Shown piece after piece: positions 13,617 through 16,203 of a DNA stretch of 64,000 nucleotides. The notes below the pieces were generated by a model. The model saw nothing but the letters and a program-made list of their open reading frames with translations. It ran no database searches and was not told the DNA's origin. The translations under genes and the position numbers were made by a program. Every line of letters starts with the position of its first letter. Position 1 is the first letter of the stretch. Source of the DNA: Escherichia coli (GTDB taxonomy: Bacteria; Pseudomonadota; Gammaproteobacteria; Enterobacterales; Enterobacteriaceae); assembly GCF_024502345.1 (NCBI RefSeq), contig NZ_JALDNN010000001.1; one strand, given 5' to 3'.

Positions 13617-13970
13617 TTAACTACAAGTGTTCTTACTGTCTACGGAACAATTTTGTCTGGCCAGGTTGCGGACAATCACCTGAACCTTTTCCTGTTCGCA
13701 TCGCCAGGCCTGCTCAATTATTTTCGCGGCCCATGATGGAATATGCGGTGATAAGCGGTAATGAACCCACTTACCCTGCTTGCGATCCAGCAACAAACCG
13801 CTTTCACGAAGAAGCGCCAGATGGCGGGAGATCTTGGGCTGCGACTGGTCGAGAGCAGTGCAGAGATCACAGACGCATAACTCTCCCAGCTCGCTGAGCA
13901 GTAAAACGATGCCCAGACGGGTTTCATCGGCAAGAATTTTGAACAGTTGGATGGGTAACAGAAATGACAT
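13617..13970 (-). CDS. arsR: ArsR/SmtB-family arsenic-responsive repressor ArsR, 117 aa
   Basis: ORF translation [37 protein letters not shown]... (metal-binding ELCVCDL motif, winged HTH). Confidence 0.95.
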
Positions 13971-14119
13971 ATTGCGCTCCTGATTGTTGCAGGTAGTGTC
14001 TCTCTTCGAAGCGGATAAGTCAAAAACATATATGGTTTAACGAATGTGTATGTGCAGAGGAAGGTAATAGGTGTGAATTAAGCGTTGGCTATTCATTTGA
14101 AAGGAGGTCTGAATCAGGA

Positions 14120-14205
14120 CGTAAAAAAACCGACTTTGCGTCGGTTTTTTACTTTCCAGCCCAGAGTTGGTGGCTCTGGCTGGAGTGAGAATGCCCACAT
14201 CTAAC
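14120..14205 (-). ncRNA. agrB: agrB-like small antisense RNA (repeat copy nearest arsR)
   Basis: Block shared with the dinQ leader (ctggctggagtgagaatgcc...) on the opposite strand to dinQ; putative -35 ttgcaa / -10 tagtat on the minus strand; hairpin plus U-run at 14123..14150. Ends approximate; agrA/agrB naming from recollection of K-12 order. Confidence 0.55.
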
Positions 14206-14351
14206 GGTTCAATACTATTAGCCAGTGGCTAACATTGCAAGCGTTAGCGATTTCTTCAGCTGGAGAAGGGACAGTTTGCTATACATGTTGGTGAAAGAGG
14301 ATTTATATACTTTCATCGGGTCGCTGCCGTACCAGGCTTTGTCCGAATCCG

Positions 14352-14442
14352 GATGTAAAAAAACCGACTTCGCGTCGGTTTTTTTACTGTTCAGCCCTGA
14401 GTTGGTGGCTCTGGCTGGAGTGAGAATGCCATCATCTAACGC
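14352..14442 (-). ncRNA. agrA: agrA-like small antisense RNA (repeat copy nearest dinQ)
   Basis: Second copy of the same repeat with its own putative -35 ttgcaa / -10 tagcat and terminator hairpin at 14355..14385; ends approximate. Confidence 0.55.
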
Positions 14443-14502
14443 ATCAATGCTAATACCATACTGAAACTATTGCAAGGACATGCTGGTTTTATAACCTGAA
14501 TA

Positions 14503-14522
14503 TACTGTATGATTATCCAGTT
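14503..14522 (+). promoter_or_regulatory. LexA operator (SOS box) in the dinQ promoter
   Basis: tactgtatgattatccagtt contains CTGT-N8-CCAG, one mismatch from the CTGT-N8-ACAG consensus, upstream of the dinQ peptide ORF. Confidence 0.8.
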
Positions 14523-14713
14523 AGCTCTGAGGCATTTTCACTCTGGTAATGCGCATAAACGCTTTCAAAGTCCTGGTCAGAAGTACGGGTGGTGCCGTTA
14601 ACTGATGCTCTGGCCGGAGTGAGAATGCCATTATCTAACAATAGGGCATGCACCGTGACAGGCAGTGGATGAGTAAGCGGATGCATTCTCACTCCATCGC
14701 ATGGAGAAAACGG

Positions 14714-14797
14714 GTGATTGATAAAGCAATCATCGTTCTTGGAGCGTTAATTGCGCTGTTGGAACTGATCCGCTTTCTGCTTCAGCTTCTGAACTGA
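14714..14797 (+). CDS. dinQ: DinQ small hydrophobic toxic peptide (27 aa, GTG start), type I toxin
   Basis: gtg att gat aaa gca atc atc gtt ctt gga gcg tta att gcg ctg ttg gaa ctg atc cgc ttt ctg ctt cag ctt ctg aac tga translates to VIDKAIIVLGALIALLELIRFLLQLLN; downstream of the LexA box; leader contains the sequence complementary to agrA/agrB. Confidence 0.8.
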   Translation: MIDKAIIVLGALIALLELIRFLLQLLN

Positions 14798-14850
14798 TAG
14801 CGGAAACGTAATTAAGGGCTAAGAGCACACTACTCTTAGCCCTTTAACAT

Positions 14851-16203
14851 TTAACGCATGGTCACGAACTCTTCTGCCGCCGTTGGGTGAATGGCGACGG
14901 TATTGTCGAAGTCTTTTTTGGTTGCCCCCATCTTCAGCGCCACCGCGAAGCCCTGCAACATTTCGTCCATACTAAAACCAATGCCGTGAATACCGACAAT
15001 CTTCTCTTCCGGCCCAACGCACACCAGCTTCATGCGGCACGGCTGGCGGTGAGTGGTGACGGCGGTATACATCGCGGTGAAAGAGGATTTATACACTTTC
15101 ACCTGATCGTCGCCGTACTGCTCGCGCGCCTGCGGTTCCGTTAAACCAACAGTACCAATCGGCGGATGGCTGAAGACCACGGTCGGAATGTTGCTGTAAT
15201 CCAGATGCTCATCCGGCTTGTTATTAAACAGGCGTTCAGAGAGACGGCGACCCGCTGCAACTGCTACCGGTGTCAGTTCTACTGCACCCGTGTTATCACC
15301 CACCGCGTAAATACCTTCAACGTTGGTGTTTTGATATTTATCGACGACGATATAGCCTTTTTCGTTAGTTTTAACGCCAGCGGCTTCCAGGTTGATGTTG
15401 TCATTGGCAGGCTCGCGACCAATCGCCCAAATCAGGCAATCCACCGTTTCACTGCGACCATCTTCCAGCTCCAGCGTCAGGCTACCATCGGCATTTTTCA
15501 CTACCGCTTTCGGGATGGCGTTGGTGTGCAACTGCGGGCCTTCGGCGTTCATCACTTCGACCAGCGTTTCAGAGATCATCGGGTCGAAGCTGCGCAGCGG
15601 CGCATGTTTACGCACAAACAGATGCGTTTTCGCGCCGAGGCCGTTAATCACGCCAGCCAGCTCAACGGCGATGTAACCCGCGCCAACAACCGCCACACGC
15701 TCTGGCAAAGCAGGAAGGGCAAAGAAACCATCAGAATCAATACCGTATTCCACGCCCGGAATATCCGGGTGGCTCGGACGACCGCCGGTGGCGATCAGAA
15801 TATGATCGGCTGTGATGGTTTCACCGTTAACTTCCAGCGTTTTGGCATCAACGAAGCGGGCAAAGCCTTTGATTACATCAACGTTATTTTTACCGAGCAC
15901 GTTTTCATAGGAAGTATGAATACGGTCGATATAGGCGGTACGGCTGGCGATCAACGTTTCCCAGTTGAATTTATTGATAGTGGTATCAAAACCATAATCC
16001 GGGCCGTACATATGGATCGCTTCACGGATTTGCGCCGCGTGCCACATCACTTTCTTCGGTACGCAACCGACGTTCACGCAGGTGCCGCCCAGCTCTTTGG
16101 CTTCAATCAGCGCGCATTTCTGGCCGTACATAGCCGCGCGGTTGATGGAGGCGATACCGCCGCTGCCGCCGCCGATGGCGATGTAATCATAGTGTTTAGT
16201 CAT
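14851..16203 (-). CDS. gor: Glutathione reductase, 450 aa
   Basis: ORF translation [51 protein letters not shown]... (FAD/NAD disulfide reductase with CVNVGC redox site). Confidence 0.97.

Follow-up and report, generated by a model that had tools for sequence, protein, structure and literature searches.

The interval between arsR and gor in a 64,000-nt stretch of Escherichia coli DNA (contig NZ_JALDNN010000001.1, assembly GCF_024502345.1; the whole stretch is referred to as the window, and its positions serve as coordinates) is the chromosomal dinQ-agrAB toxin-antitoxin (TA) system of E. coli, which is of type I. With a probability of roughly 0.93, we read it as a dinQ-agrAB locus that works by the K-12 mechanism, by homology, and in which the dinQ-proximal of two antisense small RNA (sRNA) genes is the predicted main antitoxin; in K-12 the better-matching copy is instead the arsR-proximal one, at the agrB position. 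The locus, its parts and its mechanism are already known for K-12, having been published in 2013 and 2016. What is added here is limited to an allele-level prediction (the copy at the agrA position as cognate) and to evidence for shuffling of the pairing core, both predicted from sequence and thermodynamics calibrated on K-12.

In K-12, dinQ is regulated by LexA and translated from the +44 processed transcript alone, yielding a 27-aa depolarising peptide of the inner membrane; agrA and agrB are both constitutive, and toxicity is counteracted by agrB only, the complementarity to dinQ being 30/31 for agrB and 25/31 for agrA (PMC3567139). The evidence comprises northern blots, primer extension, UV sensitivity of an agrB mutant and membrane depolarisation (PMC3567139). 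The K-12 leader contains four elements – 1 (U16-C28), 2 (G94-G106), 3 (U167-U178) and 4 (A182-G187, including the Shine-Dalgarno (SD) sequence) – of which 1:2 and 3:4 pair in the +1 RNA and keep the SD closed, and 2:3 pair in the +44 RNA and leave it open (PMC5066626). AgrB bound to G88-A119 restores the 3:4 pairing, blocks translation and forms an RNase III substrate, as established by selective 2′-hydroxyl acylation analysed by primer extension (SHAPE), S30 translation, gel shift and RNase III assays (PMC5066626).

The window locus is recognised as dinQ-agrAB by its arsR and gor flanks, the identity of DinQ, the matches of both repeats to Rfam RF02891, the K-12 LexA box and the agr promoter hexamers. 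Its principal features are the following:

14121-14204, minus strand: arsR-proximal Agr sRNA (copy 1), orthologous by position to K-12 agrB (Rfam RF02891, AgrB)
14355-14439, minus strand: dinQ-proximal Agr sRNA (copy 2), orthologous by position to K-12 agrA (Rfam RF02891)
14503-14522, plus strand: LexA operator TACTGTATGATTATCCAGTT, identical to K-12, overlapping the likely dinQ -10 and +1
14520-14850, plus strand: dinQ primary transcript, by homology (+1 at 14520, about 331 nt; +44 processing site at 14563)
14607-14638, plus strand: Agr target G88-A119 including element 2 (G94-G106, 14613-14625), the third repeat block, after PMC5066626
14714-14797, plus strand: dinQ coding sequence, GTG start, encoding the 27-aa single-transmembrane toxin VIDKAIIVLGALIALLELIRFLLQLLN
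13617-13970, minus strand: arsR, left flanking gene, a 117-aa open reading frame (ORF) named after the RefSeq annotation that K-12 and other strains carry in the aligned region
14851-16203, minus strand: gor (gorA), glutathione reductase, right flanking gene, a 450-aa ORF named from the RefSeq annotation of aligned genomes

The first-pass annotation had described, within 14100-14800, two near-identical minus-strand repeats each with a promoter-like element, a common block and a terminator, a plus-strand leader with the same block, a LexA box and a 27-aa hydrophobic peptide, and had identified them as SOS-inducible DinQ with a trans-acting antisense RNA. This description stands, since the sequence-testable defining features of the locus are all present, and the dinQ/gor hairpin (14814-14844) is the only part to lie outside that span. 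Direct repeat units occupy 14107-14220 and 14341-14455 (88-91% identical, 234-235 nt apart), and a 33-nt block occurs in triplicate on the plus strand, at 14173-14205, at 14408-14440 and, in the dinQ leader, at 14607-14639. The sequence CTGGCYGGAGTGAGAATGCC is found exactly three times in the 64 kb, always on the plus strand (14176, 14411 and 14610), against 0.01 occurrences expected by chance. A small hydrophobic peptide and base-pairing RNAs that would antagonise it are thus encoded side by side, the general arrangement of a type I TA system.

The pattern TACTGT-N9-CAGT has its single site in the window at 14503-14522 (0.04 expected), and this predicted LexA operator overlaps the dinQ promoter, the likely -10 of which is TATGAT at 14508-14513; the K-12 operator has a heterology index (HI) of 4.83 (PMC3567139). 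The DinQ peptide is identical to that of K-12 and scores 54 bits with the NCBIfam equivalog NF041472 toxin_DinQ (cut-off 30). Its GTG start, shown experimentally in K-12 (PMC3567139), follows a GGAG at SD spacing, 7 nt upstream. The region 13950-14860 is present in 5422 of the 5426 complete E. coli genomes, is always chromosomal and has dinQ annotated beneath it, the RefSeq product name being "damage-inducible type I toxin DinQ". The window locus is 92.6% identical to K-12 by megablast, with no insertions or deletions from the dinQ promoter to its terminator.

Both agr copies match the RF02891 model over its full length (107.2 bits for copy 1 and 91.9 bits for copy 2; gathering threshold 40) and fold better than shuffled sequences (copy 1 at -34.7 kcal/mol, z -6.1; copy 2, z -4.7). 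Their 5′ ends, UUAGAU at 14204 and 14439, are like those of both sRNAs in the curated MG1655 record, which gives the order gor - dinQ - agrA - agrB - arsR; because agrB is arsR-proximal and agrA dinQ-proximal in that record, copy 1 is the positional agrB and copy 2 the positional agrA. The antisense segment of copy 1, nt 1-33, corresponds to 14172-14204. As in the AgrB family, these are divergent small RNAs, each with its own promoter and rho-independent terminator:

14212-14240, minus strand: copy 1 promoter (-35 TTGCAA 14240-14235, 17-nt spacer, -10 TAGTAT 14217-14212, 7 nt to the 5′ end)
14447-14475, minus strand: copy 2 promoter (-35 TTGCAA 14475-14470, 17-nt spacer, -10 TAGCAT 14452-14447, 7 nt to the 5′ end)
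14121-14152, minus strand: copy 1 rho-independent terminator (AAAAAACCGAC-GCAAA-GUCGGUUUUUUU, -14.7 kcal/mol), fitting the terminator stem of the Rfam model

These elements were assigned through identity to mapped K-12 elements and by explicit folding. Both pairs of promoter hexamers recur unchanged in K-12, where the agr transcription starts were mapped by primer extension (PMC3567139), and the copy 2 promoter stretch is identical throughout. The terminator hairpins have the form AAAAAAACCGAC-loop-GTCGGTTTTTTT, at -14.7 kcal/mol in copy 1 and -19.5 kcal/mol in copy 2. The -35 TTGCAA of copy 2 (14470-14475) is its own reverse complement and sits only some 30 bp away from the LexA box in the divergent dinQ promoter, the two promoters standing back to back.

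Where the window departs from K-12 is in an 8-nt core following GGAGTGAGA, which differs from K-12 in all three repeats:

K-12: dinQ target GAGTTCTT; agrB position GAGTTCTT; agrA position TAGCCATC
Window: dinQ target ATGCCATT; agrB position (copy 1) ATGCCCAC; agrA position (copy 2) ATGCCATC

The pairing blocks of the two window copies differ at two positions, CAC (14196-14197) in copy 1 versus ATC (14431-14432) in copy 2. Copy 2 is complementary to the dinQ target at 31/33 positions, leaving one C-A mismatch and one G-U, and copy 1 at 29/33. Duplex energies and net cofold gains with the +44 dinQ RNA were computed with K-12 as the positive control:

K-12 dinQ with agrB: duplex -58.2 kcal/mol, net cofold gain -39.5
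K-12 dinQ with agrA: duplex -42.7 kcal/mol, net cofold gain -25.3
Window dinQ with copy 2 (agrA position): duplex -58.1 kcal/mol, net cofold gain -39.7
Window dinQ with copy 1 (agrB position): duplex -52.3 kcal/mol, net cofold gain -21.6

The energies reproduce the experimental order in K-12, agrB over agrA, and in the window the positional order is reversed: the K-12 pattern of a near-perfect arsR-proximal copy and a mismatched agrA is absent. Judged from these alleles, 'agrB matched, agrA mismatched' is a property of the K-12 allele and not of the locus. Moreover, nt 1-22 of copy 2 are unpaired in the centroid structure, and the GUG variant of copy 1 has nt 7-20 in a small hairpin and a tighter first stem. 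Pairing across strains is weaker (window target with K-12 agrB, -41.3 kcal/mol; K-12 target with the window copies, -45 to -46 kcal/mol). In these models copy 2 (14355-14439) matches best, is the most accessible antisense and is probably the main antitoxin of the window strain, with copy 1 (14121-14204) a predicted intermediate binder that may contribute. The duplex prediction and the K-12 comparison proposed with the first-pass annotation thus bear it out, in that both agr copies are complementary to the dinQ leader and that K-12 has an identical DinQ, LexA box and set of agr promoter hexamers. Its further suggestion, that differences in the block decide which copy is an effective antitoxin, agrees with the published K-12 conclusion (PMC3567139, PMC5066626), but that only one copy is effective is less certain here, with two and four differences from the target. 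The first-pass annotation did not assign the two copies to agrA and agrB.

The 5′ untranslated region (UTR) of dinQ retains the remaining elements of the K-12 switch:

14531-14547, plus strand: element 1 (the published U16-C28 is 14535-14547; pairing here reaches nt 12)
14683-14697, plus strand: element 3 (the published U167-U178 is 14686-14697), partner of element 2 or of the SD
14701-14706, plus strand: element 4 with the SD (GGAG, 14703-14706)
14814-14844, both strands: convergent dinQ/gor hairpin, a bidirectional terminator with a 12-nt perfect inverted repeat (-19.0 kcal/mol on the plus and -22.0 kcal/mol on the minus strand), the latter listed by a terminator scan

K-12 dinQ numbering fits without insertions or deletions, the anchors U16, G88, G94, A119, U167, U178, A182 and G184-G187 all matching (PMC5066626), and a 13-nt perfect inverted repeat (14616-14628 and 14683-14695) constitutes the 2:3 duplex. 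In the minimum free energy (MFE) structure of the +1 RNA (ViennaRNA, as for the other folds of the leader), nt 12-28 pair with nt 94-110 over 17 bp, where the K-12 1:2 duplex has 13 contiguous bp (nt 16-28 with nt 94-106), and the SD hairpin 173-178/182-187 is present. In the +44 RNA, a 13-bp pairing joins nt 97-109 to nt 164-176 and the SD hairpin is gone; it returns when G88-A119 is blocked. The mean probability that the SD is unpaired follows the same course, at 0.04 for the +1 RNA, 0.38 for the +44 RNA and 0.03 for the blocked +44 RNA, so that the 1:2, 2:3 and 3:4 pairings track the published model in silico.

On the K-12 model, LexA would repress dinQ at 14503-14522 until DNA damage frees an approximately 331-nt transcript from 14520. 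This primary transcript would be inert, element 1 (14531-14547) pairing with element 2 (14613-14629) and the freed element 3 (14686-14697) locking the SD (14703-14706) into a hairpin. Loss of the first 43 nt would give the +44 mRNA, in which element 2 pairs with element 3 and the SD opens, allowing the 27-aa DinQ to be made from the GTG at 14714, to insert into the inner membrane and to depolarise the cell. Two putatively constitutive sRNAs of 82-85 nt from the opposite strand, whose 5′ 33 nt are antisense to leader G88-A119, would on binding displace element 3, re-close the SD hairpin and create an RNase III substrate. The window sequence is fully compatible with this published mechanism, with expression, processing and toxicity predicted from K-12.

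Several points weigh against the reading of a K-12-like locus with copy 2 as its main antitoxin. The margin between the window copies is modest (two versus four differences, about 6 kcal/mol in duplex energy) and wider in K-12 (one difference for agrB versus seven for agrA), and copy 1, whose 14-bp helix with dinQ nt 97-110 is perfect and much superior to what K-12 agrA forms, may be fully functional. The putative transcript ends and +44 site of the window are carried over from K-12 by homology. A second, weak LexA operator of K-12 (HI 13.82, drawn in a figure and absent from the text) was not located. A generic scan of the window called neither the agr promoters, because they match 8/12 consensus positions and the cut-off is 9/12, nor the agr terminators, because A/T pairs carry the stem into the T-run. 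In the +44 MFE structure the SD pairs in part with nt 47-54, and the 'open' state is therefore relative only.

The strongest competing explanation is that the arsR-proximal copy (14121-14204) is the effective antitoxin, as in K-12, or that both copies are redundant, with no functional swap. We consider this doubtful, if well worth weighing: the predicted duplex of copy 1 (-52.3 kcal/mol) is stronger than that of the inactive K-12 agrA (-42.7 kcal/mol), its uninterrupted 14-bp helix spans the RNase III cleavage region, it outscores copy 2 on the Rfam model (107 versus 92 bits), and both agr alleles recur in the nearest genome, OkiPb01695, together with a dinQ target that matches copy 1. However, it is copy 2 that has fewer differences from the window target (2 versus 4), the stronger duplex, a free 5′ tail and the larger cofold gain (-39.7 versus -21.6), and the functional threshold on the duplex-energy scale is known just as lying between -42.7 and -58.2. 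Far less probable is an inactive remnant that has kept its similarity and lost expression or toxicity in the window strain; collapsed versions do occur in E. coli, with a 199-bp deletion fusing agr to dinQ in about 4 of 30 evenly spaced genomes and an IS481-family element separating agr from dinQ in one, but all elements are intact in the window (agr promoters and terminators, LexA box, four switch elements, SD, GTG and peptide) and the three substitutions in the dinQ coding sequence relative to K-12 are all synonymous. That the minus-strand repeats are mere terminator or intergenic repeat elements with no role as RNA antitoxins, their shared block being coincidental, is barely credible: the generic promoter and terminator scan did list neither repeat, but the pairing block is seen three times where 0.01 is expected, both units match a curated sRNA covariance model at full length far over threshold and fold far better than shuffles (z -6.1 and -4.7), and the K-12 orthologues of both have been detected as RNAs by experiment (PMC3567139). 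Chance repeats, a decayed locus and elements resembling repetitive extragenic palindromes (REP) were all rejected as explanations of the agr/dinQ repeats.

The reversal that makes copy 2 the predicted cognate antisense is one of several allele combinations within Escherichia. We compared loci from 20 E. coli genomes at evenly spaced megablast ranks, from XH990 and from the Escherichia found in a block scan of one genome per species, scoring each dinQ target against the agr copies of its own genome. The 23 intact loci represent 17 distinct haplotypes. Target alleles are ATGCCATT, GAGTTCTT, ATGCCCAC, ATACCATT and TAGTCGTC; the arsR-proximal alleles are ATGCCCAC, GAGTTCTT and GAGCTCTT, with ATGCCATC in E. 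whittamii, and the dinQ-proximal alleles are ATGCCATC, TAGCCATC, TAGTCATC and ATGCCATT. Every intact locus retains a copy with one to three differences from its own target (-49 to -61 kcal/mol), and the second copy is usually poor (-39 to -51 kcal/mol), the sole exception being E. whittamii, in which the copies tie at about -56 kcal/mol. Mean duplex energy is -55.8 kcal/mol for own pairs and -49.0 kcal/mol for targets paired with the agr set of a haplotype with a different target, and 19% of the cross pairs reach the own-pair mean, both comparisons ignoring phylogenetic relatedness. At 14615 dinQ reads GGCCGG and the agr copies read GGCTGG (14181 and 14416), giving a C-A mismatch even for the cognate copy; this mismatch is conserved almost throughout the compared loci, with Escherichia sp. 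E1V33 (dinQ GGCTGG) and E. whittamii copy 1 (GGCCGG) as exceptions.

Two pairs of haplotypes have both agr alleles in common and are distinguished by the dinQ target alone. In the first pair, the window and OkiPb01695 both carry ATGCCCAC at the arsR-proximal and ATGCCATC at the dinQ-proximal position, with target ATGCCATT in the window, fitting copy 2, versus ATGCCCAC in OkiPb01695, fitting copy 1; they are 99.1% identical over 911 nt, and their few differences include three clustered target changes. Similarly, LCP30S3_I5 and GN03139/AH50 both have the agr cores GAGCTCTT and ATGCCATC, and the target is GAGTTCTT in LCP30S3_I5 (fitting copy 1) and ATGCCATT in GN03139/AH50 (fitting copy 2). We infer gene conversion, which produces clusters of base changes copied from a neighbouring repeat. 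On balance we lean, by a small margin of confidence, towards viewing the two Agr copies as two specificities between which the dinQ target switches, with the core exchanged by gene conversion, and not as an antitoxin and a relic.

The distribution of these arrangements was estimated by counting 30 evenly spaced megablast rows, unfetched rows being assigned from a verified neighbour of identical score, an assumption that was checked on H9, H13, H19, H23 and H27:

arsR-proximal copy the better match: 12/30 rows
dinQ-proximal copy the better match: 9/30 rows
One agr copy only, in each case 305 nt from the dinQ start: 4/30 rows
199-bp deletion joining the agr block to the dinQ block: 4/30 rows
IS481-family element between agr and dinQ: 1/30 rows

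Outside E. coli, E. albertii and Escherichia sp. E1V33 have one agr copy, well matched and dinQ-proximal, and E. whittamii has two. The target allele TAGTCGTC is common to E. albertii, E. whittamii and some E. coli. Against that target, K-12 agrA (core TAGCCATC, one flanking G being replaced by A) has four differences (-52.9 kcal/mol) and the flank-matched TAGCCATC copy of other strains has three (-55.6 kcal/mol), as compared with seven differences and -40.7 kcal/mol for K-12 agrA against the target of K-12 itself. From this closeness of K-12 agrA to a target shared across species, K-12 agrA may keep a near-ancestral specificity, the K-12 dinQ target and agrB having changed together, rather than agrA having 'partly degenerated'.

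Neither the allele shuffling nor the positional flip is described in PMC3567139, PMC5066626, T1TAdb or the other papers searched that mention the locus, within a search of incomplete coverage. Where there were two candidate antisense RNAs, T1TAdb chose the more stable one (PMC8594479). The assignment 'agrB = antitoxin, agrA non-functional' appears to be strain-specific, and position-based annotation from K-12 would put the label of cognate antitoxin on the wrong copy in many E. coli, the window strain probably among them. Natural haplotype pairs distinguished by the dinQ target core alone offer a ready test of how much complementarity an sRNA antitoxin needs, and they also bear on the retention of a second agr copy.

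The direct repeats drive frequent loss of the system, either by deletion of one agr copy or by the 199-bp fusion, which is relevant to how TA systems are scored across strains. The single-copy state presumably arose from a 235-bp deletion between the repeats. The 199-bp deletion (e.g. in DEF2 and LS4) removes an agr promoter, the dinQ promoter with its LexA box and the leader's first ~110 nt, leaving a locus that looks, from its sequence, promoterless and devoid of antitoxin; RefSeq annotates dinQ in these genomes regardless. The genome with the IS481-family element is EC12, where the transposase gene lies between an agr copy and dinQ. The ars flank also varies, with arsC adjoining instead of arsR in some strains.

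Between the agr copies lies a further feature that bears on the origin of the repeats:

14280-14332, minus strand: relic of an internal gor segment that stops where the second repeat unit starts

By local alignment this relic matches gor 15066-15118 with a score of 61 (shuffles: mean 19.4, maximum 31), and its translation still resembles Gor (...KVYKSSFT). Directly upstream of the single agr copy of E. albertii lie two colinear gor relics (-446 to -381 from the dinQ start), one from the gor 3′ end (26/30 identical) and one from the same internal segment (17/19). The gor′-agr-dinQ-gor layout therefore predates the split of E. coli and E. albertii. This suggests an origin either by old tandem duplication of an agr-dinQ-gor′ module with loss of the upstream toxin, or by an agr-dinQ cassette inserting into the 3′ part of gor. 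A candidate relic of the dinQ 3′ end at 14254-14274 was dropped (71% identity over 21 nt, 8-nt seed), as it is not significant alone. RefSeq has a "hypothetical protein" in some genomes at a 59-aa minus-strand ORF (14513-14692) opposite the dinQ 5′ UTR, and in another genome a further one covers the gor relic; both calls, sited over non-coding features, are probably spurious.

Relative to the K-12 system (PMC3567139, PMC5066626), the window shares the arsR-gor position, the DinQ peptide, the LexA box, the agr promoter hexamers, the sRNA 5′ ends and terminators, the four 5′ UTR elements with their numbering and the antisense target G88-A119. It differs in that the better-matching copy is at the agrA position and not the agrB position, and in having a 1:2 duplex of 17 rather than 13 contiguous bp and a potential 2:3 duplex of 13 rather than about 9 bp. 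The tisB-istR-1 system, a comparison drawn in PMC3567139, likewise has a LexA-controlled toxin mRNA with an inert primary transcript activated by 5′ processing, a divergent non-overlapping antisense sRNA leading to RNase III cleavage, and a small depolarising inner-membrane peptide. However, its sequences are unrelated, it has a single antitoxin sRNA, and IstR-1 blocks a ribosome standby site without closing an SD hairpin. In hok/sok and zorO-orzO the full-length mRNA is also inert through long-range 5′ UTR pairing, activated by processing and repressed by antisense RNA, but Sok overlaps its target in cis and hok is activated by 3′ trimming, and the tests run show no homology of the Zor/Orz peptides or sRNAs to DinQ/Agr. 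A stretch within the zor 5′ UTR is similar in sequence to plasmid dinQ-like leaders (2024 survey, PMC11264685).

The dql (dinQ-like) genes of Enterobacteriaceae (PMC5066626, PMC8594479) have related 5′ UTR elements 1-4 and related peptides, but they are paralogous or xenologous loci elsewhere on chromosomes and plasmids and encode other peptides, whereas the window has the orthologous dinQ. The pattern GGAGTGAGA-N8-ATCTAAC occurs once each in Citrobacter amalonaticus, Serratia sp. H1w, Pantoea gossypiicola and Enterobacteriaceae MGYG-HGUT-00110, with the further core alleles AACACCAT, CAGCCTTC, AACATCAT and AACATTAT among these four. The Citrobacter copy has an agr-type terminator upstream, and the other three resemble dql leaders. 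Most single matches in the block scan (cyanobacterial, archaeal, other metagenome-assembled genomes (MAGs) and Streptococcus suis) were discarded as chance, the pattern specifying 16 bases. E. coli agr/dinQ blocks also occur on short contigs of Acinetobacter haemolyticus KCRI-348C (424 nt) and of the 'Lachnospiraceae' MAG HGM12015 (1061 nt, also with an intact dinQ ORF), and the E. coli locus in these two non-enterobacterial assemblies is most simply contamination.

The first 25 kb of the window are 98.8% identical to E. coli chromosomes, the best match being XH990, and only three records reach at least 99% identity over this stretch, the lineage being sparsely represented in the genome collection. 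The nearest complete genomes (XH990) cover 34 kb where the window covers 25 kb. The additional ~9 kb in XH990 is probably the chu/shu haem-uptake cluster in the yhiD-dctR interval, which would then be missing from the window.

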